In this document: positions 4,905 through 44,863 of the stretch, piece by piece
Layout: each line of letters begins with the position of its first letter
How positions within the stretch are numbered: the stretch's first letter is position 1
DNA from: a virus
Direction: 5' to 3' (one strand)
Virus record (IMG/VR): IMGVR_UViG_3300045972_000140
Span: 32,001-96,000 of that record
Length of the DNA: 64,000 bases
Program-made: the position numbers and the translations under genes
The notes under the pieces: model-generated
What the model was told of the DNA's origin: nothing
Database searches by the model: none
What the model saw: the letters and a program-made list of their open reading frames with translations, nothing else

Positions 4905-7900
4905 TTAGATCAACTTCCAGTTTGTATTATAGGAATTGTACATTAAGTTTATTGCAGAACCAGACACATTTATCGATAATCCTGTTGCATCAAACTCAAC
5001 TGTGTGCCCTCCGCTTGCTGCAATCAGAACAGCATTAATGCTACATTTATTCGTAATATCGACTAATCCAACTTTATCCCCATCTGCCGGAGATGCTGGT
5101 AGTGTAACAGTAAACGGAGCGGTTGTAGAATCCGTTCGGACCAGATCATTTACTGCCGCTGTATAGGCCGAAGTCTTAACAGATGTAATTGCTAGACCGC
5201 CGGCGGGTGCTGGTGCCCAGGTCGGAGCAGATGAACCATTGGATGTTAATACTTGACCAGTTGTACCGTTTGTTACAAAGCTTGTGGTACCTGGTGCTGA
5301 TTGATAATGAAGGTTGCCTGCACTTCCTGCCGCAATATTTGTTGCAGTGGTTGCACTCGCTACCGTGCCAGTAACGTTGGCACCAGTTAAGCTTGTTAGG
5401 CCGGAACCATTACCAGTTGGTGCAAGATAGTTAGTACCTGCAACAAAGTTAGCTGCTCTATAATCACTTGCATATGTTGAATTAGCTGCATTATCGCCGG
5501 TATTTGTGCCAGATAAGTTAGCTACTGCGGCATTGGCTAAGTTTGCATTAGCAATAGCTGTGCCATTCCACACACCAGTTGTAATTGTACCAACACTTGT
5601 TAAGCTAGACGAAACTACAGTCGAGTTAAGTGCTGTACCAGTTAGTGTACCTGCTGCTGCTGTTACTGTGCCACTTGCACCAAGTGCAATAGCTGTACCG
5701 TTTACTGTTATAGAACTATTTACAAGTTTAACATTAGCGATAGATCCTGCTAACATTGTATTCGTAACAACACTAGTACCGGTTGTATAAACACCATTTG
5801 TAACTGTACCTGCGTTACCTGTTACTGAACCACTAATTGGGTTCGTAACTGTTAAGTTAGTAAGAGTACCAACGCTTGTTAAACTAGAACTTACAACATT
5901 AGATGCTAGTGTTGTTCCAGTTAGTGCATTTGCAGAACCACCAAACGATGGTCCACCCACTGTATAGCCTAAGTACGTAGTGCCACTATCAACGGTTACT
6001 AATGTCACGAAGGTATAAACTGTTGCAGAAATAACCGGGGCGGATCCTGTAACCCAAGAAACAGATGCTGGCCAGGTAATAGTATAGTTACTCGGATTAG
6101 GCGCAATTTGCATTGCAATATTAGTCCAATATCCGGATATAGCGTTAACAAAGGAGAATGTAGTATTACCAGATAATGTGCAGGTATAGTTAGTACCATC
6201 ATCGGCAAAAGCAAGTGTTACGGCGCCCGATGCTGCTATATCAGTGGTCTTATAACCAATAGCACCGTTAGCCTTTATATAACCAGAAAGTGTTTGATCA
6301 CCGGATACACCAGTTTGCAATAGAATGTTAGCAGCCTGACCTGTATCAGAGTCGCCACCGTAGAAACGAATATCACCACCACGTGTACCACCGGTGCCTG
6401 GATCAGTATATAATCGAATCGCATTACCGGTTGATGCACGGATTAATAACGAAGACGAAACACCGGCTGGTTGCCATATAGAATTTGATCCACCTAATAT
6501 TAAACCATAACTATCAACACCTGTACCTACTTGGAATTGTCTAGATGCATCGTCATAAGTTAACCCATCGCTAAACACTGTTGTACTTGCTGCGCTCTGG
6601 AATGGAACTTGCATTGCTACACCTGCCGCAATATTTGTTGCTGTGGTTGCAGATGTTGCTGTAGGAACTGTACCTGTTACAGCAATTGTTACTGCACCAG
6701 TTGCGCCTGATACAGATATGTTTGATCCTGCAGAAACAGATGTTACGCCAGTGTTGGCAAAAGTATTGCCTGTTAAAGATAAGCCTGTACCTGCAACATA
6801 AGTACCAGATCCGCTGAATTGAGCATAAACAATCGGGTCTGTGCCAACAGTTACTACGGTTGCTGTCTCTGTCCATCCGGTGTCGGCTTGTGTTGTACCT
6901 ACCTGTACATATACCGCTTCGCCATCAAGTTGTGCTGCTGTTGCTGAATCTGTTGCACGAGTCCATGCACTAGCTGCCACCACATAAATACCGTTCTGAG
7001 ATTGAGTTGTTTGATTTTTAACAAGTATGCGATTACCTGCAACCAATGCAATACCGTCGACTGTTTGTGTTCCAGATAATGTAATGTTTGCTGTTGTTGC
7101 TGCTCTAACCGATGTCTTCCAGCTTAGACCTGCTACCGCTGCGTCAACATAATTCTTTGTTGTTGCATCTGTCCCCGATGTAGGTGATGTAAGTCCAGTA
7201 ACTGTACCAGCCGAGAATGTAAGTGTTCCGGTGATTGTGTCGCCTGCTGTATTTACCGGAGTATAACCAAGTGCAGTTGTGATGTCACCTGTTGTTACTG
7301 CGGTTGTTGCGGTTACCAAGCCCTTGCCGTTTGTTGTAATCTTTTGGAATGACGCTGTAACTGGCGAAGCATTAACTGTCGCTAATGTTGCATTCGTAAT
7401 TGCTGTACCTGTGGTGCCCGACATTGTGATATCGCCACCTGTTACAGAGATTGCACCAGACGGAATACTAACTGATGTGGTTGTAACGGCTGTTACTAAA
7501 CCTTTACCGTTTACTGTAACTTGTGGAATTTGTGTAGCAGAACCGTATGTACCTACATCGCTGTTAACTGTTGCAAGAGTTGCTGCAAATGATCCTGTAC
7601 CGGAACCTGTTACATCGCCTGTTAATGCTATCGTCTGATCGCCGGTATTTGTACCACTTAAATTTGATCCGGCTACTGTGCCAGTAGCTACTACACTAGT
7701 AGGTGTAATATTGCCTAAACTAAGCGAAATAGTACCGCTAGTTGTTACTGGACTGCCTGACACTGTTATGCCGTTGCTACCAGATGCTGCAACAGATGTA
7801 ACGGTACCGGTGTTAGTTGTATAACCAGATGGATTAGAATTGTTATATGGAGTAAATCCGAGTGCTGTTGTAACCTGTGCACTTGTTAAGCTTAATGCAC

Positions 7901-8744
7901 CACTAAGTGTAAGCGAACCGGTCGACGTTACTGTTCCAGATAATGTTAAACCACTTACCGTTCCTGTACCAACTACAGATGTAACTGTTCCTGTATTAGT
8001 TGTATATCCATCTGGATTAGTCGAATTGTATGGAGTAAATCCAAGTGCATTTGTTACATCACTTCCACTGATGCTAGAAATATAACCAGCTGGGTTAGTT
8101 GCGTTGTATGGAGTAAAAGTTAGTGCAGTTGTTACATCCGACAATGTTAGTGTAATAGCACCTTGTCTTGTATTAAAACTAGTAACACCGCCAATGACGC
8201 CACCATTTACTGTGGGTTCTACTGCAAAATCAACTACACCAGTAGCACGATTAATAGAGTAAACTATATTTGATGTTAATCCGTTATCTGCTATTCTAAC
8301 AAATTCGAAATCAGATCCTGATGACGCACCTGTCTCTGTCATACTGTTTGCTTGCATTAACCAACGATCAACACCCGATGTTTGAAAACGCAATGTTCTA
8401 TTAAGAACATCTGCATTAGATATGCTAATGCCAGTGTTAGTAAGTGTCGAAGTAGATGTTAATGCACCAGTTGATTTATTAATAACAAACTTAGCACTGC
8501 CACCAAATGTGCCGCCATCGTTGAACTGAATTTGGGTATCGGCGCCACCGGGCGTAATTGCTCCACTCATCCAAGAAACATTAGTTCCGTTTGTTACCAG
8601 CAGTTTGCCGGCCTGTCCTGCCTGCGCCGGCAATAACGCATTTATTGCTGTAGGTGCAGTGGTTTGTCCGGTACCGCCAAGAGCAATAGGAATGGGACCA
8701 CCATTTGATTGAACTAAAATATTACCAGCTAGTTGTACGCCCAT
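4905..8744 (-). CDS. Tail fibre-like structural protein
   Basis: 1279 aa, T/G/S/A-rich. GGTG and DATTKNYVD fibre motifs, AATTANITLSG...RILVKNQT...NGIY module, SSSLTSVGT repeats. GGAG RBS and upstream GATAAATA. Confidence 0.8.
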   Translation of the reverse strand: MGVQLAGNILVQSNGGPIPIALGGTGQTTAPTAINALLPAQAGQAGKLLVTNGTNVSWMSGAITPGGADTQIQFNDGGTFGGSAKFVINKSTGALTSTSTLTNTGISISNADVLNRTLRFQTSGVDRWLMQANSMTETGASSGSDFEFVRIADNGLTSNIVYSINRATGVVDFAVEPTVNGGVIGGVTSFNTRQGAITLTLSDVTTALTFTPYNATNPAGYISSISGSDVTNALGFTPYNSTNPDGYTTNTGTVTSVVGTGTVSGLTLSGTVTSTGSLTLSGALSLTSAQVTTALGFTPYNNSNPSGYTTNTGTVTSVAASGSNGITVSGSPVTTSGTISLSLGNITPTSVVATGTVAGSNLSGTNTGDQTIALTGDVTGSGTGSFAATLATVNSDVGTYGSATQIPQVTVNGKGLVTAVTTTSVSIPSGAISVTGGDITMSGTTGTAITNATLATVNASPVTASFQKITTNGKGLVTATTAVTTGDITTALGYTPVNTAGDTITGTLTFSAGTVTGLTSPTSGTDATTKNYVDAAVAGLSWKTSVRAATTANITLSGTQTVDGIALVAGNRILVKNQTTQSQNGIYVVAASAWTRATDSATAAQLDGEAVYVQVGTTQADTGWTETATVVTVGTDPIVYAQFSGSGTYVAGTGLSLTGNTFANTGVTSVSAGSNISVSGATGAVTIAVTGTVPTATSATTATNIAAGVAMQVPFQSAASTTVFSDGLTYDDASRQFQVGTGVDSYGLILGGSNSIWQPAGVSSSLLIRASTGNAIRLYTDPGTGGTRGGDIRFYGGDSDTGQAANILLQTGVSGDQTLSGYIKANGAIGYKTTDIAASGAVTLAFADDGTNYTCTLSGNTTFSFVNAISGYWTNIAMQIAPNPSNYTITWPASVSWVTGSAPVISATVYTFVTLVTVDSGTTYLGYTVGGPSFGGSANALTGTTLASNVVSSSLTSVGTLTNLTVTNPISGSVTGNAGTVTNGVYTTGTSVVTNTMLAGSIANVKLVNSSITVNGTAIALGASGTVTAAAGTLTGTALNSTVVSSSLTSVGTITTGVWNGTAIANANLANAAVANLSGTNTGDNAANSTYASDYRAANFVAGTNYLAPTGNGSGLTSLTGANVTGTVASATTATNIAAGSAGNLHYQSAPGTTSFVTNGTTGQVLTSNGSSAPTWAPAPAGGLAITSVKTSAYTAAVNDLVRTDSTTAPFTVTLPASPADGDKVGLVDITNKCSINAVLIAASGGHTVEFDATGLSINVSGSAINLMYNSYNTNWKLI

Positions 8745-8783
8745 ATTATGTCTCCAAAGAGTTATTAGATTGAAAGTTATTGT

Positions 8784-8791
8784 TATTTATC
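8784..8791 (-). promoter_or_regulatory. Late promoter motif GATAAATA
   Basis: TATTTATC on the + strand, 40 nt upstream of the 8744 ATG. Same motif precedes many structural genes. Confidence 0.7.
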
Positions 8792-8818
8792 CGATATTTA
8801 AAAATATCAAGTTACAGT

Positions 8819-8852
8819 CAAGAAAATAGGCACTGAAGTGCCTATTTTCTTG
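8819..8852 (-). terminator. Intrinsic terminator (possibly bidirectional)
   Basis: Perfect 15-bp inverted repeat CAAGAAAATAGGCAC-tgaa-GTGCCTATTTTCTTG just after the 8866 stop. Confidence 0.75.
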
Positions 8853-8865
8853 TAGTTAAAAAGTA

Positions 8866-11800
8866 TTAGGTTATTGCTGTACCAGAGATAATCCAAGTAG
8901 TTGCTGCTATTTTAAGGATGGTAGCAAACCCGTATGTACCTACTGTTCTGCTGCCTGTTGTACCAGCGCCTGCCAAGTACAATGTATCAGAAGTGATAGC
9001 AATTGTGCATGGTGTTGAGCTTTGATTTACAAAGCTGATCGCTGTACCAATTGGATATGCAACCGATGAGTTTGCAGGAATAGTGTAGGTTTGGCCACCG
9101 GATGCGGTATAAATGTGCTTTCCGGAATCGCTCAATCCTAATGTTGTTGTGCCTGTTACACGCTGTGGAACTTCAAGATATCCAACAGTGTATGAACCAG
9201 CGCCTGCTACAGGCACAGATGTCATTGCACCAGCTGCCGTAACTGTAGTGAAGGACGGAGTCAATGTGGTTGCAATTGTAACTGCACCTGTTGCACCCGA
9301 TACGGTAATATTTGTACCGGCTACCGCACTTGATACGCCGCCGGCGCCACCTGCTGCCCAAGTTGGTACACCGGCTGCTAAAGTTAATACGTAGCCATTT
9401 GTACCGGCTGCTAACATTGTTGTTGCGCCTGGACCTGTTTGGTATGCAATAGAACCTGCTGCACCACCTGCAAGATTAGTTGCTGCGCCGGCTGTTAAAC
9501 TCGATGCTGTACCTGTTAGTCCCGTACCTGGTCCTGTGAATTGAGTGGATGCAGTAAATGTAGTACCAGTGTATGCATTTGCTACATTAAGTGCATTAGC
9601 TGTGCCAACGGTTAAACTTGCTGCTGTGCCTGTAAGATTTGTTCCAGCAAATGTAGGTGCTGCTACTAAACCAATAGTGACTGCACCTGTTGCACTTGAT
9701 ACAGAAATATTTGTACCTGCTACATTAGATGTTACGCCGGCATTAGAAATTATATTACCGGCTATAGAAATACCTGTACCTGCCGTAAACGAGCCACCAC
9801 CTGTAAATTGTGCAAATACAATATTAGATGATCCAATTGTTGGATTAGCAGTTGTTTGTGTCCAACCTGTATCTAAGTTTATAGAACCGTTTGTAACATA
9901 CAAAGACGCATTACTTAATTCTGCAGATGTATTTGCATCAGTGGAACGACTCCAGGCACCGGATGCTGCAATATAGATACCATTTTGTGTTTGATTTGTT
10001 TGATTCTTAACTAAAACACGATCGCCTGCTAATGTTGTATATGTATCGATTGCCTGTAAACCGGACAATGTAATGTTTGCCGTTGTTGCCACTGCTGCCG
10101 ATGCTTTCCATTCTAAGCCAGCAACTGCATTATCGACATAATTCTTGTTGGCAGCGTCAGACGCATTTGTCGGATCAGGTAAGCCTGTAACTGTATGAGT
10201 ACCATCCATTGTAATAGTACCGGTCATTGAGCCACCAGTTAACAATAGATTAGATGATGCTGCGCCAGTTAATGCGCCAACAAATGTAGTCGATGTGACA
10301 GAAGTTAAACCAGCTAATGTAGTATGTGTACTACCAAGTGCAAAAGCAGTAGAACCTATTGTTACTGAACTGTTTGTTAGTGAACTGTTTGGAATATTAG
10401 AGATTGTAGCAGAGTTTGACCATGCTGCAGGTGCTCCTGCTCCTGCACTTACAAAAACTTGTCCTGCTGCGCCGACTGAGCCATTAACTGCAACAGAACC
10501 ATCTGTATTTATTGCAAGCCAATCTGTAAATACTGTCGATGTACCTGTTGACAAATATAATGCAGTATCAGATATCATTCTTAGTGGCTGACTTGTACCT
10601 GCTTCTACTAATGCAACACCTGTACCGCCCACTGTTAAAATGTTTACAGCCGGATCATATGTTAATGTAGAATATGTTGACGAACTTGTTCCTGTACCGT
10701 ATACGATCTGATTTGCTGGGTATGCCGGTGTGTGCGGGACTTGCCAAGTTGGTGCAGCACTAGGACCATTAGATGTTAATACATATAATGATGTACCCGG
10801 TGCAATATACGAAGTTGTATCTGCTGCAGACTGGTATGGTAGATAACCGATTGCGCCGCCGGCAATATTCGTTGATGTTGTTGTGCTTGTGGCAGAACTT
10901 GCCGTTGCTGCATTACCAGAAATACTAATGTTCCATGTTCCGGATGCATTTGTACCTGTTGTAGATGGCGCACCTATTGTATTATAAGAAATTGTTGTTG
11001 CGCTGCCACCATTAAACGATGATGGACTTGCTGCGCCAGTACCTGCGTTATTAAATGTTACTGCATTAATAACACTTGCTGAGCTGCCGTTAACTGAACC
11101 TGTAATTGTTCCTGTAACTGTTAAGTTTGCAAGTGTACCAACACTTGTTAAGCTTGATGTAACAATATTGGATGCTAATGTTGTTCCTGTTAGTGTGTTT
11201 GCTGCGCCAGATGCCGGTGTTGTCCAGGTTGGGATAGATGCACCGTTAGATGTTAACACTTGCCCGGATGTACCATTTGCAAGGAATGCAGTTGTATTTG
11301 TACCAGATTGGTACACAATATTGCCGGCGGCACCGCCATTAAGCGCAGTTGCTTTAGCAGCGGTTCCGTTAATAGAACCAACAATTGTTCCCGTAACTGT
11401 TAAGTTAGCTAATGTACCAACACTTGTTAAGCTAGACGAAACTACATTAGACGCTAATGTAGTGCCGGTTAGTGAGCCGGCACTAGCCGAAGTTGATATA
11501 GCCGTACCATTTACTGTAGGAGTTGTTTTAAAATCAAATACACCGGTGGCGCGGTTAACGCTATAAACTATATTTGATGTTAATCCATTATCTGCTACAC
11601 GAACAAATTCGAAATTAGATCCAGTATTTGAACCAACTTCGACGTTGTTGTTTACTTGAGATAACCAGCGATCGCTGCCTAGTGTTTGATAACTAAGTGT
11701 TCTATATAGTTCAGCTGAATTAGATATAATAAGGCCGGCATTAGTAAGTGTCGATGTAGATGTTATAGCGCCCGTCGATTTATTGATAACAAGAAATGCA

Positions 11801-12114: not shown

Positions 12115-15100
12115 TTAGTTAGTGGGGAACGGTCCTGTCGGTACAGCAAACGAGCTAACATATCGACCAACGCCTTTTGTAATTCTTAAGTCGTCTATGG
12201 AACCGTTAAAGAATGAACCATTAGCTGTATTTGCATCAACACCAAGTGCAGGACGATTGACGCCATTGACATATGTGGTTGCATCTGTCCACGGTGACCC
12301 TTCTTGAATTCCATTTACAAACAGTCTTGTGACACCAGACACCCTAGATACTGCAACAAAATTCCAGGTGTTTGCTGCCAAGGCAGTGGTACTTGCAATC
12401 TGAATAGTTGCATTTACATAAACTTGAATAGTTTGTGTTGTAGTTTTCCATAGTGTAAGACCTGCGTATGTTGCTGTGCCAGCTGGTCGTGAATCATATA
12501 ATCCATATTGAGTTCCTGTTGCTCCTGCATTAAACCAGAACTCAACCGTGTAATCACCTGTACCGAATGCAAAGTTAGGGTTTGTACCAGGAACATATGC
12601 ATAGTCAGTAGAACCATTTAGTGCCAAGGCGCCGTTGCCAAATTTGGAATTAGATCCAACTTGTGCCGAGCCAACTAACATAAGATCGCTACCACCAACA
12701 TTATCAATGATACCACCATTAGTACCATTTAATAACAGTGCAGTACCGGAGATTGCGGTAAGAGGGGCAGTCGGTAGTGCAAATGACGACCCAGTGTAGA
12801 CTGCTGTACCGTTTACTACTCGAGCATTTGAAATATAACCGTTCCAGAAGGTAGCTGTGCCACGGTTACATAATCCAACTTGCATAGTCGGGTAAGTGTT
12901 AAGGATAGTATTGGTAGCACTTTGTACAGAGAGAACACCGTTTACATATGTAGACCATAGGCCACCGGTTCTTGTAACTGCTACGTGATTCCACGAATTT
13001 AAATAAATTAAGTCCGGTCCGGCCCACGATGCTGCGCCGCTGCCTCCGTTGGTAAAGAGTCTAATAGTAGTGCTATTCCCAGTTGTAGGTGTAGCAACAA
13101 TTTCAAATGCGTCAGAATTAGACGCAATGATTGCACAAGCCTGGGACGGACCAGTAAACGATAATGGATAAACCCACGCCTCAACTGTACAATCGTTCCC
13201 GGCAGATATATTCAGTGTACTACTAGCAGATACAGGTGTGGACAAATAATCAGTGCTACCATTAAATAACATTGATCCACTATTTGTTGAGGTGGAGTAT
13301 GAACTTGATACAGCAAATGGTGTAGCTGCTTGTATGGATGGTGTACCTGTTGCAGTAAGTGCAAAATTATTAGCACTGTTATCAACGAAACGGTTATTTT
13401 GCAATGTTAAAAGTGCTGTATTAGTAATAGCGGATAATGGCGATGTTGGTACAGTAAAGTTAGATGTATAAACTGCGGTGCCTTTGACGACACGTAGGTT
13501 GGAAATGTAACCTGCAAAGAAATGTGCATTAGCTGCATCTGTGTACAATCTACCGATAGTTGGCGCGGCAGCAGATGTTAAATTGTACACAACAGATGTA
13601 GATGCTGAGTTAACACCATTTACATAAAGAGTAGTTGTACCGGATAATCGAGCTGCCGCTAAATGAACCCACGTATTTGCCGAAACAGGATTTGCAGATA
13701 TTACCCCAGTACCTGTAGCAGATGTACCCAGATATACTTGTGGTTTTAAATCTGATCCCATTATTATAGCAGCGAATGTGTTAGTAGTAACTGTAGCATT
13801 GCCGCCGGTGCTATAAACTCCGGCAACCGTTAGTGCAGTCACATATACCCAGGCTTCGATTGTAAAATCTGCTGTACCTAGCACAAAAGCAGCATTGGCA
13901 GGAAGAGCTAGATAATCTGTGGTACCGTTAAAGTAACCACTCCATCCATTTTGGTCGAACGGACTGAATGTACCTTGTATTGGTGTACCAGTTGGTGTAA
14001 TTACCGATGTGTTAAGACTGCTATCTAAGAATAAATTGTTCTTAGAAACATTTTGTGTAACAGATTGAATATCACCTTGTAACAATAGCGCATTGTATTG
14101 GAAATATGGGTCAGTTGTGCCATTGTTTGGTAATGCTGCTGTAGGTGCAGTAAAGTTAGAAGTATAACGTGCAATACCGTTTGTGATGCGGAGGTCATCG
14201 ATATAACCGACAAATGCGGTCGCCCACCTTTGTGCCCATCCTACTGTCAGTAATCCAGTTGAATCTGTAATATTAGCCGATACGCCTGTAAATGTTCCGC
14301 AGGCTGTGCCATTGCAATACCAAGTCAATGTTGTACCATTTCTAACTATTGCCCAGTGTTCCCATACATTTGCAGTAGGTGTCACCGTAGATGCATAATC
14401 AGTAGCCACTGTACGGAAAGAATATGAGTTAATATTCGATGCTGTATTTCGATATATTATCCAACCAGTGGATGCATCGTTGAGCTTCTGACCGATACCG
14501 GCGCCGTTGCTAGATGTCCACGCACCAGTGAAATATTGTTGCCACTCGACTGTAAAGTTACCTGTACCAAAATTAGCAAAGCCAGTATTTGGCGCTGTTA
14601 GATAGCCGCTACCATCAAAATACATAGAACCTGTACCAAATTTAACTTGCGTAGTTGATGTAGTAGCTGTGCTTACAGTTGTAAGATTAATCTTACCTGT
14701 TCCATCAATGATACCAGAACCTGCAGCATTCAATAACAATGCCGTATTACCTGTAATTGCTAATGGTGCTGTAGGCGGAATAAAATTAGCTTTATATAAT
14801 GCAGTTCCGTTAACAAGCCTTGCATTAGATACATAACCAGAAAAATATGTTATGCCTGTAATGTTCTGTGGATCGGTACCAATTTTGAAGTTAGCACCTG
14901 CAGTAATTGTACCCGCTAATGCACCAGTACCTACGCTTAGTCCGTCAACGTAAACAGTTGCAGTTGATCCACTTCTAACCAATGCAATGTGGTGCCACAC
15001 ATTTGTTGTATACGTACCGGATGATTGTGTTATAGAATAAGCAGTAGTTCCTGCAGATCCTACTGCTGCAATAATATTGGCCGAGCCATTACTACGCTGT

Positions 15101-30882: not shown

Positions 30883-32358
30883 ATAGATTTTTTTTACGAT
30901 AGTCAAGTAAGACGTTACTTATTACAATTTATGCGGATATTCTCTGACATAAAAGTCAGGAATGGCCCCGATGCTAACGGACTCTACACTGTCACTCGTA
31001 TACCAATTGTATACGGCGATCCGTCGTGGGTTGTTGCACAACTTATCAAAGGTGGCAGCGAAAATACATTAATGCCGGCACCTATGTTTAGCGCATACAT
31101 AGATAATATTAAGATGGTACCAGATCGCAGACAAGATACTCAATTTGTTAGTAAGATGTCTACGGTAGAAAGAAATGTACAAGGTCTATCAAATAGTCTG
31201 TGCGACGATAACCAAAATCCTACATATGGTAGTCAACCGGGATTTAGATACGATGTAGATCGATATATGCCTGTGCCCTACGACATAACATTCAAATTAG
31301 ATTGCTGGACAACAAATACAACAAACAAATTGCAAGTCTTCGAACAGATTAGTACAGTATTTAATCCATCGATACAATTGCAGCAAAATAGCAACCTTCT
31401 AGACTGGACAAGCATCTTCGAAGTATGGATGGAAGATTTTACTTGGACAAATCGCTCTGTACCGCAAGGCGGAGAAGCAGAGCGTGATGTAATGAGTTGG
31501 AAATTTAAGGTACAGGCATGGATTAATCCTCCTGCCAAAGTTAAACGTAGTTCCCTTATCGCTGAAATTGTTACAAACGTGTTCAGTGATATTGATGTGG
31601 GGTTAGCTGCCGCAACTATAGACAGTAATGAATATGATGTATTTAGGACTTGTTTTGAAGGCATACCAATGCAAATTATTACAACAGAAGGCAATTATAA
31701 GATTTCTGTTACATTGAACGGTACACAAAACGAAATCGTATTACTGAACCAATATGGGCAAGAAGATCCATTGCTGAACTGGCAAAGCCTTATACAAAAG
31801 TACGGGCAGATTACCCCTAATATCACCAAAATTAGGCTTAAATTAGACCCTAACATCGAAGTAAGCGATTCTGACATTATAGGCAGTATTACACAAGATC
31901 CTGCACGTCAAAATGTACTGTTTTTCGTACCCGATGTGGACACAATGCCTGCAAGTACGATTCCGCCCATTAACGATATTATTGACCCAACTGAAGTCAC
32001 GCCGGGCGATGGTCTCCCTATTGCAGCCGTTGGTCAACGATATCTCCTAACATCGAGCGATAGTGCAGGTGAAGAAACTGCTATACCTGCTGGTGTAACT
32101 ACTAGTCCGTGGGGCCCTAATATCATTGCATATCCTAACGATGTTATCGAGTTTAACGGCGGTAGCTGGAAGGTCATCTTTGATTCTAAGAACTCGACAG
32201 GGTTAAATTATGTAGTAAATAATTCAAATGGCATACAATATACATTTGACGGTAAGAATTGGCACTACACATACCTAGGTATCTACAGCCCGGGATACTG
32301 GAGAATCGATAATATTATTTCAGCGCCAAATGGAACTACAGTCAACCAATACGACTGA
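30883..32358 (+). CDS. gp15: Tail sheath stabiliser / tail terminator, T4 gp15-like, C-terminally extended
   Basis: RIPIVYGD, MPVPYDITFKLDCWT...KLQVFEQI...FNPS motifs. Frame extends 16 codons upstream of the track's ATG (30931) to ATA at 30883 (IDFFYDSQVRRYLLQF), with GAGG 8 nt before it. Confidence 0.7.
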   Translation: MDFFYDSQVRRYLLQFMRIFSDIKVRNGPDANGLYTVTRIPIVYGDPSWVVAQLIKGGSENTLMPAPMFSAYIDNIKMVPDRRQDTQFVSKMSTVERNVQGLSNSLCDDNQNPTYGSQPGFRYDVDRYMPVPYDITFKLDCWTTNTTNKLQVFEQISTVFNPSIQLQQNSNLLDWTSIFEVWMEDFTWTNRSVPQGGEAERDVMSWKFKVQAWINPPAKVKRSSLIAEIVTNVFSDIDVGLAAATIDSNEYDVFRTCFEGIPMQIITTEGNYKISVTLNGTQNEIVLLNQYGQEDPLLNWQSLIQKYGQITPNITKIRLKLDPNIEVSDSDIIGSITQDPARQNVLFFVPDVDTMPASTIPPINDIIDPTEVTPGDGLPIAAVGQRYLLTSSDSAGEETAIPAGVTTSPWGPNIIAYPNDVIEFNGGSWKVIFDSKNSTGLNYVVNNSNGIQYTFDGKNWHYTYLGIYSPGYWRIDNIISAPNGTTVNQYD

Positions 32359-42945: not shown

Positions 42946-43524
42946 ATGCATAAGAAAATTGAGATAAACGAATTAGATATTCCTAAAGATGATATTGAGT
43001 GCTGGGAAAGATATCCTAAGCATAGATGGGTTTACGATATTTCGCGATTACTAGATTCGCAGAATATCAAGTGGAGTCCATTCAAGACAATTGATTTGCA
43101 AAATATGGTTGCTAATATGTATCTAGAATCAATAGGTTCTGTTGCATATGCACCAGGATGGATTTATATAAACAATCCATTTGGGAAGCAGATACTCTCA
43201 GAGGTATACATCATTAAAGGAGAGATTAGGCATATACGATATATCGATAATATCACTAGAGCTCAATTAACAGATAATGTGGGAGATATAGAGTTACGCA
43301 TCAGCGCATTCGTAACAATGCACTTTCAGAAGTTCACAGGTGTAATCTCAGTAGAAACCATCGGTAACGACATATATTCTATTCGTTTAAAACCTATTTC
43401 AGGGATATCCTTAACTATAGATGCTAATATAGCAAAACTGGTAAAGAGAATATATAAGAAAAACGATTTAGTTCATATAAACGGTCTTACAGACCGTACA
43501 CTGCATGAATCTTATGCTTCGTGA
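42946..43524 (+). CDS. Hypothetical protein, possibly degenerate ATP-grasp-like
   Basis: 192 aa. DDIECWERYPKHRWVYD N-terminus and GVISVETIGNDIYSIRL C-terminus recall phage ATP-grasp-like proteins. Family call is tentative. Confidence 0.5.
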   Translation: MHKKIEINELDIPKDDIECWERYPKHRWVYDISRLLDSQNIKWSPFKTIDLQNMVANMYLESIGSVAYAPGWIYINNPFGKQILSEVYIIKGEIRHIRYIDNITRAQLTDNVGDIELRISAFVTMHFQKFTGVISVETIGNDIYSIRLKPISGISLTIDANIAKLVKRIYKKNDLVHINGLTDRTLHESYAS

Positions 43525-43559
43525 ACTCAGCATCGATTCATTTGTGTAATTTTTTAGAG

Positions 43560-44000
43560 ATATAAAGACTAAGAATAAATGCTTGACGGTAGAGCCAGAG
43601 AAAGGGTATACAAACAAAGATTAAAAAATAACCGTTGTTTGTATACCCTTTCTGTTGCGCATTTGACAGCGGCACCAGAGACTAAACAGACTATTCAAGA
43701 AGCATTGGATTGATTATGTCAGCTTCACGCTATTACGCGGCCTGTAAGGGGGAATCAGTAGGTTTGCCTACAACATCCTCGCGGCTTTAATTGTAACTCC
43801 TCTTAGTCAGTTGTTACGCCGCTCGCGGGCCATACCTTACTTTCACTTACCCGCGACAAATTTTAACTCGATCTACTTACTTTGTCCACTGGGACATTTC
43901 TTTAAACCTTGCCACTGTGCATCCAGCGGTCCTGACTGTTGCGCTCCATCCCGAACGACGCGTCACCCGATATAAAGGTTCGGCAACCTGTAATGCATTG
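43560..44000 (-). ncRNA. Candidate structured non-coding RNA of unknown family
   Basis: No ORF of 60 aa or more in 43525-44287. Many nested stems and a possible loop-to-3'-end pairing. Two helices gain G-U pairs only on the minus strand. Confidence 0.45.
43599..43653. repeat. Perfect 19-bp inverted repeat
   Basis: AGAAAGGGTATACAAACAA (43599-43617) and TTGTTTGTATACCCTTTCT (43635-43653), 17-nt spacer. Confidence 0.9.
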
Positions 44001-44044
44001 AAATTCTATGTGCTGATTGTAGCTTGTTTGATTTTGTTTGTAAA

Positions 44045-44132
44045 GATTTTCGTTTAGATTTGGGTAGATTTGTAAAATTTTAATTATTGTGTATGATTTT
44101 TAGTTAGATTCGTGTGGATTTATAAAATTTTA
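44045..44132. repeat. AT-rich direct repeat with 50-bp period and phased GATT motifs
   Basis: 44045-44082 versus 44095-44132 match at 31 of 38 positions. Confidence 0.8.
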
Positions 44133-44252
44133 TATATGCTATTGCTTTAGACGTAAGGCGCATCAACCCTACAATTTTTATTTAAAACAACTTTTGTTGT
44201 TGCTGTATTTTATCTCTATTACTGACGTACTATCGACAAAATTGGCATAAAT

Positions 44253-44280
44253 TAAAATAGCGCAGTTTTGCGCTATTTTA
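44253..44280 (-). terminator. Intrinsic terminator after the lysin gene
   Basis: TAAAATAGCGCA-gttt-TGCGCTATTTTA, 8 nt past the 44288 stop. Confidence 0.75.
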
Positions 44281-44287
44281 TTGCTCA

Positions 44288-44863
44288 TTAGTCGAAAGAA
44301 TTGCTAGAATCTGTTACAAACGCACGCATCTCGTTCACACGACGTAACCACCCTTTTAAGTACTTTCCTTGATCGGGACGTTTTGCCACAATTGCGTTGT
44401 AATATGCCACACGCGCATCACACACTGCATTGCACAGTGTTATTTCATCCTGCTGTTGAATAAGTGCAATAGTTGCAGGGCCAATATCTCCATCTGCTGC
44501 TGCACCAACTGTTGTTTGTACAAACTTAGCCATTCTGCCTACGCCGTGATTAATACAGCCGTCGAAGTGTAAAGCAGCAAGGCGCGGTGGCATGTTATTG
44601 CAGTCCCCAAGCAACCAATATTCTTTGTAATAAATGCGGAGTACAGCATCCCAATCTAATCCTGCTACGTCTAATTGCAAGTGGGAATTCTTAGCAATAC
44701 CGTATTTTGTTTCACCACCTGGGTCTGTAGGATCATTTACGTATCCACAGGCACGTTTATTCGTACCATCGCGTGCACCAGGTGCATCTACATTCCAAAA
44801 TCCGCCAACTTCGTAAAGCATAGCGTGGTCAACTGCCTTTAAATATGATGTTTCGTATGCCAT
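44288..44863 (-). CDS. Glycoside hydrolase family 108 lysozyme (endolysin) with C-terminal peptidoglycan-binding domain
   Basis: GYVNDPTDPGGETKYGI, YYKEYW, FDGCINHG, ADGDIGPAT, YLKGWLRRV. Confidence 0.9.
   Translation of the reverse strand: MAYETSYLKAVDHAMLYEVGGFWNVDAPGARDGTNKRACGYVNDPTDPGGETKYGIAKNSHLQLDVAGLDWDAVLRIYYKEYWLLGDCNNMPPRLAALHFDGCINHGVGRMAKFVQTTVGAAADGDIGPATIALIQQQDEITLCNAVCDARVAYYNAIVAKRPDQGKYLKGWLRRVNEMRAFVTDSSNSFD

Follow-up and report, generated by a model that had tools for sequence, protein, structure and literature searches.

Few large RNAs combine numerous conserved helices with long invariant loops, and those of known function are mostly ribozymes or cores of ribonucleoprotein (RNP) machines; GOLLD (RF01998) and ROOL (RF03087), which are carried by phages or prophages, have no known function. 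As described by Kretsch et al. (2025, PMC12286853), these two RNAs form RNA-only homo-oligomers via kissing loops with covarying intermolecular pairs, and the same source describes unexpected RNA-only assemblies for the orphan classes GOLLD, ROOL and OLE. The subject here is an element at positions 43582-43999 (minus strand) of a 64,000-nt stretch of viral DNA, namely positions 32,001 to 96,000 of the IMG/VR record IMGVR_UViG_3300045972_000140; this whole stretch is referred to below as the window. By analogy, the RNA predicted for this element resembles most a large ornate orphan RNA class: like GOLLD and ROOL, it is several hundred nt long and combines many covarying helices with long conserved loops. 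Unlike GOLLD and ROOL, with which it shares no similarity at the level of sequence or covariance model (CM), it is smaller than GOLLD, is represented by two diverged paralogs per genome, and has no tRNA genes beside it (none in the 64 kb). Polynucleobacter-1 (RF01718), a motif from freshwater metagenomes, has no CM match in the window, nor any in 15 homologous loci at the gathering score.

The interval that holds this element is quite probably a stand-alone minus-strand gene for a large structured non-coding RNA of an undescribed family. The parts of this conclusion differ in strength: that the element is a real structured RNA read from the minus strand is nearly certain, and that it represents a new family as opposed to a diverged known class is very likely.

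Homologs and conservation of the element

The element lies in a gap, 43525-44287, between the stop codons of a 192-aa open reading frame (ORF) on the plus strand (stop at 43524) and of a GH108 endolysin ORF on the minus strand (stop at 44288). The gap contains only ORFs of 36-54 aa and is the largest interval between ORFs of at least 100 aa in the window, so that the gene-free interval described in an earlier note on this DNA is real. The GC content is 0.46-0.50 at 43700-44000, where the plus strand is C-rich, compared with about 0.35 in the flanks.

Searches via the convergent 192-aa protein retrieved 12 IMG/VR loci, all of which have a gene-free gap of about 630-800 nt (counted up to the nearest ORF of 80 aa or more, or to where the locus ends). 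A blastn comparison matches 43576-43965 of the window in 11 of these 12 loci with 67-82% nucleotide identity (L012, L009 and L004 only piecewise); the neighboring 192-aa protein is merely 52-58% identical at the amino acid level in the same 11 loci. A 17-nt pattern derived from the most conserved loop brought in 82 further stretches, and an nhmmer profile then gave 56 matches that correspond to 37 distinct sequences. The 30 full-length distinct homologs, in RNA orientation, constitute the alignment denoted A3, with the truncated L025, L038, L046 and L057 and three divergent sequences left out. A pattern from the leader upstream of the element, TAAAATAGTGTAACARC, identified 17 stretches, but the six on contigs not found by the other searches are coding sequence without a match to the RNA.

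Searches elsewhere were negative. In a blastn search, none of 50,697 phage records matched the region. In a sample of cellular genomes selected with the loop pattern, none of the at least 120 loci listed carries the RNA; the 17 weak nhmmer matches in this sample (E of 0.0018 or higher) are all short and lie at or around the seed word. As far as seen, the family is confined to uncultured freshwater T4-like jumbo phages with genomes of 365-385 kb.

The element is non-coding at the protein level. Column entropy by phase is 0.71 / 0.75 / 0.70, that is, there is no three-base period in the alignment, and no reading frame is conserved, the longest open frames varying in frame and strand among the homologs; ORFs of at least 80 aa occur in the gap in only 3 of the 12 loci, at differing places.

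Covariation and predicted secondary structure

RNAalifold applied to A3 yields 74 pairs in 15 helices with an energy of -63.8 kcal/mol on the minus strand. The number of pairs with changes on both sides is 48, compared with 29.9 +/- 2.3 in shuffled alignments (0 of 500 shuffles reach 48) and 8-19 in slid registers, and the covariation score is 0.470, compared with 0.06-0.08 in slid registers. The proportion of paired cells is 98.1% versus 83.1% in shuffles for the 74 pairs, a measure that is favored by the prediction of the structure on the same alignment, whereas the pair-count measures are robust. At least one pair changed on both sides is present in 13 of the 15 helices, the exceptions being H1 and a small hairpin around the box denoted B below. 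Two further helices, H7 and H16, also covary but are missing from the A3 consensus because their length varies. Compensatory changes are thus seen in 14 of the roughly 16 helices that make up the fold as a whole. Covariation among homologs from the syntenic interval, which the earlier note had proposed as a check, is thus strong. The features of the predicted fold, in window coordinates, are as follows.

43582..43999, minus strand: conserved RNA core, about 418 nt (nhmmer, 30-homolog alignment), with the 5' end near 43999 and the 3' end near 43582
43981-83 / 43966-68, minus strand: helix H2, 2 of 3 pairs changed on both sides
43962-64 / 43934-36, minus strand: helix H3, encloses H4, compensatory changes
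43953-57 / 43942-46, minus strand: helix H4, GNRA-like loop, invariant U-G at A3 columns 67/78
43924-31 / 43911-17, minus strand: helix H5, 3 of 7 pairs changed on both sides, G-U at columns 96/109 (A-C on the plus strand)
43903-08 / 43870-75, minus strand: helix H6, 6 of 6 pairs changed on both sides, encloses H7
43883-96, minus strand: variable hairpin H7, covaries in alignment A2 (columns 118-121 / 151-154)
43850-56 / 43823-29, minus strand: helix H8, 6 of 7 outer pairs changed on both sides
43818-22 / 43781-85, minus strand: helix H9, 5 of 5 pairs changed on both sides, encloses H10
43809-16 / 43794-801, minus strand: helix H10, 6 of 7 pairs changed on both sides
43776-78 / 43751-53, minus strand: helix H11, encloses H12, compensatory changes
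43767-71 / 43758-62, minus strand: hairpin H12, compensatory changes
43688..43743, minus strand: three-way junction of H13 (43740-43 / 43688-91), H14 (43737-39 / 43728-30) and H15 (43722-26 / 43699-703)
43597..43655, minus strand: 3' hairpin H16 in its long form, an inverted repeat with a stem of about 19 bp

Several elements predicted to be single-stranded are conserved as well. H8 closes a nearly invariant 20-nt loop (43830-43849), the 18-nt loop of H15 (43704-43721) is invariant across both types of the RNA distinguished below, and an invariant CCCC (at about 43747-43750) follows H11 as a junction. The internal loop AUGAA / GUAAG between H6 and H7 (43870..43908) is conserved too. The 3' module consists of twin boxes flanking the hairpin H16, the stem foot of which covaries, with GAAAGGG / CCCUUUC in one group of sequences (group 1) and CCAAGG / CCUUGG in the other (group 2).

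The first and last bases of the H4 loop (43947-43952; columns 70 and 75) change together, being G...G in 18 sequences (GGAAUG, GGAAAG, GGAGAG and similar) and A...A in nine (AGAAUA, AGAGUA). This pattern suggests that the loop ends may form a non-canonical closing pair around a GNRA-like tetraloop.

The strand follows from the wobble pairs. On the minus reading, the pair cells comprise 1910 Watson-Crick, 228 G-U, 7 A-C and 34 other combinations; the G-U count is biased, since the prediction rewards G-U, but the Watson-Crick covariation that defines the helices does not depend on the strand. Several G-U pairs (columns 67/78 and 213/227) do not vary among the 30 sequences, and reading the plus strand would turn them into A-C mismatches. 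The reverse-complemented alignment folds into 60 pairs at -52.2 kcal/mol as opposed to the 74 pairs at -63.8 kcal/mol given above. Given the excess of G-U over A-C and the better energy and pair number, the RNA is read from the minus strand. The earlier note had proposed a highly structured non-coding RNA spanning 43560-44000, with its stems in plus-strand coordinates. The structured and non-coding character and the absence of a known family hold, and the proposed extent is close to that of the core, with the conserved leader reaching beyond it to about 44215; the strand of the RNA, however, is the minus strand.

Five of the seven main stems of that proposal are borne out by compensatory changes in the homologs: 43823-29 / 43850-56 is H8; 43781-85 / 43818-22 is H9, and the GTAAC/GTTAC pairing nested in it, likewise confirmed, is H10; 43758-71 is H12; 43883-96 is the variable hairpin H7, with its covariation in A2; and 43912-17 / 43924-29, which pairs fully only on the minus strand, is H5. 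The other two are not conserved. One arm of AACCTT/AAGGTT (43905-10 / 43975-80) belongs to the covarying H6 and the other is not complementary to it in the consensus; similarly, one arm of AATGCTT/AAGCATT (43578-84 / 43700-06) is the 3' strand of the covarying H15, and the two arms are not complementary in the consensus. The pseudoknot suggested between 43801-08 and 43567-74 is not supported either, as this 9-nt complementarity is found in the window only: in the other 29 homologs, the longest complement between the loop and the 3' flank (4-9 nt) does not exceed what shuffled flanks give (means of 5.7-8.3 nt).

Two further pairings were considered. The alifold helix H1 (columns 27-29 / 479-481) was dropped because its pairs do not covary and it is incompatible with the 3' hairpin, which does. 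The pseudoknot candidate AGGGUAU / AUACCCU (columns 221-227 / 475-481) pairs in 94.8% of the cells but includes no pair changed on both sides; four of its seven pairs never vary, and the remaining three depart only by unpaired cells, including eight non-pairs at 222/480, so that the alignment speaks neither for nor against it.

The diverged paralog

The three divergent nhmmer matches (L045, L050 and L053) represent a second type of the RNA. Type 2 has H8-H15 with further compensatory changes (alignment A4), including the invariant 18-nt loop; it lacks the neighbors of type 1, the type of the window, and lies beside a convergent PhoH gene. A CM built on the H8-H15 domain (denoted R1) scores the type 2 sequences at 119-144 bits and the window (43686-43863, minus strand) at 152.7 bits. 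Two complete genomes, of 364,576 bp (G001) and 385,394 bp (G002), contain exactly two R1 matches each, one of type 1 and one of type 2. In G001 (C1, 139194-139357 and 331901-332078), 192.7 kb of the 364.6 kb (52.9%) separate the two copies, and in G002 (C1, 13018-13184 and 195162-195342), 182.1 kb of the 385.4 kb (47.3%) do so, with both copies on one strand in either genome, although this half-genome spacing counts as one observation, not two, if both genomes share gene order. The record from which the window comes, about a third of a genome, contains one R1 match.

A third copy in G001, considered on the basis of a CTTGACGG repeat at 218.5 kb, was rejected: the stretch reads like reverse-strand tRNA genes. 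It belongs to a 705-nt gap between convergent genes (G001:C1:218291-218995), the minus strand of which resembles reverse-complemented tRNA 3' ends (TGGTGCGGG...), so that this gap probably holds plus-strand tRNA genes.

Comparison with known RNA families

None of the 4227 models of Rfam 15 matches at the gathering score in the 64-kb window or in 15 homologous loci (113 kb). The best sub-threshold match, a miRNA model on the 3' hairpin, reaches 21.8 bits compared with the gathering score of 107. In the E-value mode, the search returns only sub-threshold miRNA and sRNA matches on the same hairpin, and nothing at E up to 1 for type 2 (L053). Taken together, the Rfam searches in both modes covered the window, L003, L053 and 18 homologous loci and produced no usable match. 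RNase P RNA, tmRNA, group I and II introns, GOLLD, ROOL and Polynucleobacter-1 have no match at E up to 10 in the window region 43400-44400 or in L034, L062 and L010, and ARAGORN detects 0 tRNA and 0 tmRNA genes in the 64-kb window. There are no flanking exons as would be expected of an intron, because the element sits between the stop codons of convergent genes. The cmscan and ARAGORN results thus agree with the failure of the earlier note to recognize a tRNA, tmRNA, RNase P RNA or intron. In the titles and abstracts on structured or non-coding RNAs of jumbo or T4-like phages and on PA5oct RNA-seq, no description of this RNA was found.

The twin boxes

The hairpin H16 is flanked by two direct repeats, with the word consensus CYGUCAAG (43662-69 and 43582-89 in the window).

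43662..43678, minus strand: twin box A, direct repeat, CUGGUGCCGCUGUCAAA in the window
43582..43600, minus strand: twin box B, direct repeat, CUCUGGCUCUACCGUCAAG in the window; conservation ends here

A 4-nt core is the same in both boxes in each of the 30 type-1 RNAs, although it comes in five spellings, GUCA, GUUA, GGCA, GGUG and CCCA. The whole 6-nt word has no conserved cis complement among the A3 sequences. Local hairpins of the form UGAC...GUCA around each box were rejected: none of their pairs is changed on both sides, and they are disrupted in the variant boxes.

A scan of alignment columns identifies a single partner candidate, column 215 in the H8 loop. The combination of this column with the box is G-C in 26 sequences, A-U in three (L008, L026 and L095) and G-U in one (L013), with the same counts for both boxes; at least two coordinated triple changes are needed, because a tree from which these columns were excluded places the window as the sister of L008. 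Several difficulties stand in the way of a simple 3-bp UGA/UCA contact: L011 and L062 break the neighboring pair, the type-2 sequence L053 combines an A at the loop position with a C in both boxes, and U225 is an equally possible local partner of G215. Intermolecular contacts like those of GOLLD and ROOL would be one explanation for a pair of identical boxes with a single loop partner in common. A tentative and rather doubtful extension of this analogy is that the boxes might be docking sites, both fitting the triplet U214-G215-A216 of the H8 loop, in an RNA that behaves like self-assembling 'ornate' RNAs or ribozymes (both paralogs). One box might then dock intramolecularly and the other between molecules, or alternating docking might serve as a conformational switch.

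The leader and signs of expression

Alignment of 27 upstream regions reveals a conserved leader between the endolysin gene and the core.

44000..44215, minus strand: conserved leader
44045..44137, strand not assigned: tandem repeat in the leader spacer, two copies of a 43-nt unit (direct-repeat search)
44253..44280, strand not assigned: perfect 12-bp palindrome, an inverted repeat directly after the endolysin stop

The leaders of all 27 loci share a -10-like TAAAAT (44207-44212) and the words GCGUAUAGGUUU and AAACCCAAAUCU, followed by an A-rich variable spacer. Two leader hairpins stay paired through sequence change, with G-U pairs on the same strand as in the core: L1 (44186-44201) is AACAGC/GCUGUU in the relatives and AACAAC/GUUGUU in the window, and L2 (44153-44172) is CGGGAC...CCCCG in the relatives and GUAGGG...CCUUAC in the window, with G-U on the minus strand. 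The two copies of the tandem repeat are AT-rich, 79% identical and 50 nt apart from start to start; they are peculiar to the window, an insertion compared with 12 relatives that have a short A-rich spacer. The palindrome is flanked on both sides by runs of A and T, and similar GC hairpins are present in some relatives; it lies outside the RNA core and looks like a terminator of the endolysin gene that could work in either direction.

Among the 24 sequencing runs that contain part of the stretch, there is one RNA library (X17, a wetland metatranscriptome). It contains two 151-nt Logan contigs with 95-99% likeness to the window (43625-43775 and 43848-43994), both inside the core and none on the flanking genes. 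Strand and ends cannot be read from such contigs, RNA libraries can contain DNA, and the run was itself selected by means of this stretch, so that they are only a weak hint of transcription. The DNA run X2 contains contigs with likeness of 99% or more to the flanks and to the greater part of the core, as far as 43892. Parts of the stretch that lack coverage in X17, X3 and X15 carry no weight, and the small shares in 20 of the 24 runs say nothing about habitat.

Interpretation and alternative explanations

The transcript would have a core of about 420 nt, or about 640 nt in all if the conserved leader is transcribed, and would run in the same direction as the GH108 endolysin gene. There is no same-strand gene 3' of the RNA: in the 32 type-1 loci (of 34) that extend far enough, the next gene has the opposite orientation. 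The placement expected of a cis-regulatory leader or riboswitch, upstream of and on the same strand as the regulated gene, is not observed. Because the next gene is convergent and type 2 follows unrelated genes, the RNA would have no cis target gene. Regulation of a neighboring gene in cis would accordingly not be expected, and the RNA may act in trans through its invariant loops; it might be a ribozyme, serve as a scaffold for proteins or be an 'ornate' RNA that assembles with itself. That it is such a trans-acting RNP component, ribozyme or assembly rather than a pre-primer of replication has about an even chance.

A number of results weigh against a new gene for a structured RNA. The folding energy of 43660-44010 does not differ from that of dinucleotide shuffles (z of +0.12 for the plus strand and -0.07 for the minus strand), an outcome that the earlier note had listed among those speaking against its proposal. 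The window sequence folds no better than chance; therefore, the case rests on covariation, which outweighs this result, and not on energy. In the 27 upstream regions, the TAAAAT of the leader is not accompanied by a conserved, suitably spaced -35 element, TAAAATAG does not recur as a promoter word in this genome, where the regions upstream of genes are not enriched in it, and the 3' hairpin lacks the U tract of a terminator. The X17 contigs fall short of proof of transcription. With respect to novelty, the IMG/VR-wide screen of Fremin et al. (2023, PMC10690425) reported 10,006 candidates, among which this family may already stand; the main text of that paper, to which the comparison was confined, does not contain the terms endolysin, lysozyme, PhoH, jumbo, T4-like or baseplate.

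The element could instead encode a structured pre-primer RNA of a replication origin, like ColE1 RNA II or the T4 oriF/oriG R-loops, which is judged unlikely. The folded transcript would then stay on, or re-pair with, the template DNA at its 3' end and prime leading-strand synthesis, and the RNA of box A would pair with the template strand of box B, forcing the identity of the boxes. T4-type phages start replication from R-loops, and the logic of RNA II involves a G-rich loop and a C-rich template. The likeness to ColE1/pMB1 RNA II and to oriF/oriG extends to a predicted transcript that is folded, non-coding and several hundred nt long, lacks a downstream gene and adjoins an AT-rich tract, and may, in the case of RNA II, include a short upstream RNA word that is repeated in the DNA near the end of the transcript. 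The common 4-nt core of the twin boxes in all 30 RNAs, through five spellings, is what such pairing would produce; however, the identical core is just 4-6 nt, the wobble asymmetry predicted by this model is seen at one position only (U/C, 18 versus 0) with four contrary cases at position 9, and column 215 of the RNA loop tracks the box change, which points to an RNA partner instead. The presence of two same-strand copies about half a genome apart (52.9% and 47.3%) speaks for origins, as does the end of the RNA at a point of convergent transcription, but the cumulative GC skew of G001 does not turn at either copy. The AT-rich tract (GC 0.265 at 44000-44199) adjoins the RNA core, although it is upstream of the fold, not downstream, and fifteen conserved helices with long invariant loops exceed known priming needs. 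The window RNA thus differs from RNA II and the T4 R-loop origins in the lack of homology and of a GC-skew turn, in a word of only 4-6 nt and in its candidate intramolecular partner column.

Alternatively, the element might belong to one of the known classes (RNase P RNA, tmRNA, group I or II introns, GOLLD/ROOL or Polynucleobacter-1, for example) and have diverged strongly from it; a size of about 420 nt and a multi-domain fold are within the range of these classes, and jumbo phages carry tRNA genes, with 12 reported for PA5oct (PMC7318152). This is nonetheless very unlikely, given that 0 of the 4227 Rfam models match at the gathering score in the window and the 15 loci, that searches of the window region, L034, L062 and L010 at E up to 10, and of L053 at E up to 1, detect none of the named classes, that ARAGORN finds nothing, and that no exons flank the element between the convergent genes. 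Still less probable is an element that functions at the DNA level only, as operator- or iteron-like protein-binding sites (a 19-bp inverted repeat with TTGAC-N7-CCAGAGA repeats on either side) or as a packaging or recombination site. Direct repeats do flank a long perfect inverted repeat, and their concerted change would be expected from co-evolution with a DNA-binding protein, but such sites could explain the 3' 100 nt only: the other roughly 320 nt consist of helices with compensatory changes and a strand-specific signature (G-U 228 versus A-C 7), and the TTGAC words on the plus strand have no conserved -10 at the right spacing.

Comparable slots in PA5oct and L003

The nearest cultured relative is the 287-kb Pseudomonas jumbo phage PA5oct (58.6% amino acid identity of the portal protein). 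Its syntenic slot (NC_071039.1, about 75,800-76,800, plus strand; 7900-8900 on the minus strand of the stretch L224) is an ORF-poor region of about 0.8 kb, with a GC content of 0.35-0.45 versus 0.25-0.32, and is preceded by a consensus TTGACA-17-TATAAT promoter (about 75,798-75,826) that points in the same direction as the window RNA. The annotation lists four hypothetical coding sequences of 38-50 aa in the slot. A 130-nt module of the slot recurs at 12,900-13,029 and 246,155-246,276. The second of these copies lies within ncRNA004, an RNA that Lood et al. (2020, PMC7318152) annotated on the basis of RNA-seq. Because the module recurs inside ncRNA004, related phages transcribe multi-copy non-coding RNAs from such slots, and the PA5oct slot itself looks like a member of a three-member non-coding RNA family that is partly misannotated as tiny ORFs. 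The R1 model has no match in the whole PA5oct genome, nhmmer none in three PA5oct stretches (L224-L226), and ncRNA001 and ncRNA002 of this phage show no similarity.

The locus L003 (4574-5367, minus strand), which encodes the 192-aa protein closest to that of the window (65%), has the same leader but a different GC-rich core, in which a hairpin lies between two direct repeats peculiar to this locus (CAGGCAAAGU). This core is matched by neither the nhmmer profile nor R1, a pattern for an L003-type core found its own contig only, and the Rfam search of this locus returned nothing usable. The sole sequence link to PA5oct is a stretch in which 24 of 26 nt are shared with the L003 slot. That the slot RNAs of L003 and PA5oct might be remote homologs of the window RNA is not supported by R1: even with filters off, the lowest E value is 0.18, for a match to the opposite strand from that expected.

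Genomic context

The window comes from a 126,686-bp record with a CheckV completeness of 32% and encodes a T4-type portal, a gp26/51-like baseplate hub and gp46/47-like SbcCD proteins. In the type-1 loci, the RNA is on the endolysin strand, 3' of the endolysin gene and convergent with the 192-aa gene; among the 34 such loci, the 192-aa gene is visible in 32 and the upstream endolysin gene in 30, the others being cut by contig or locus ends. In L061 and L078, the endolysin gene is about 1.0-1.4 kb upstream of the RNA, compared with the usual 0.2-0.3 kb or so, with an insertion between them.

Implications

The restriction of the family to these phages, as far as seen, and the retention of two diverged copies per genome suggest a phage-specific RNA function that is invisible to protein annotation. 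The two short words that always change together present a concrete, testable puzzle. If the RNA is a pre-primer, it would locate replication origins in this phage group, for which we know of none; if it is catalytic or self-assembling, it would represent a new natural RNA architecture. Should the twin boxes indeed serve as docking sites, a giant phage would build an RNA-only or RNA-scaffolded higher-order machine during infection.

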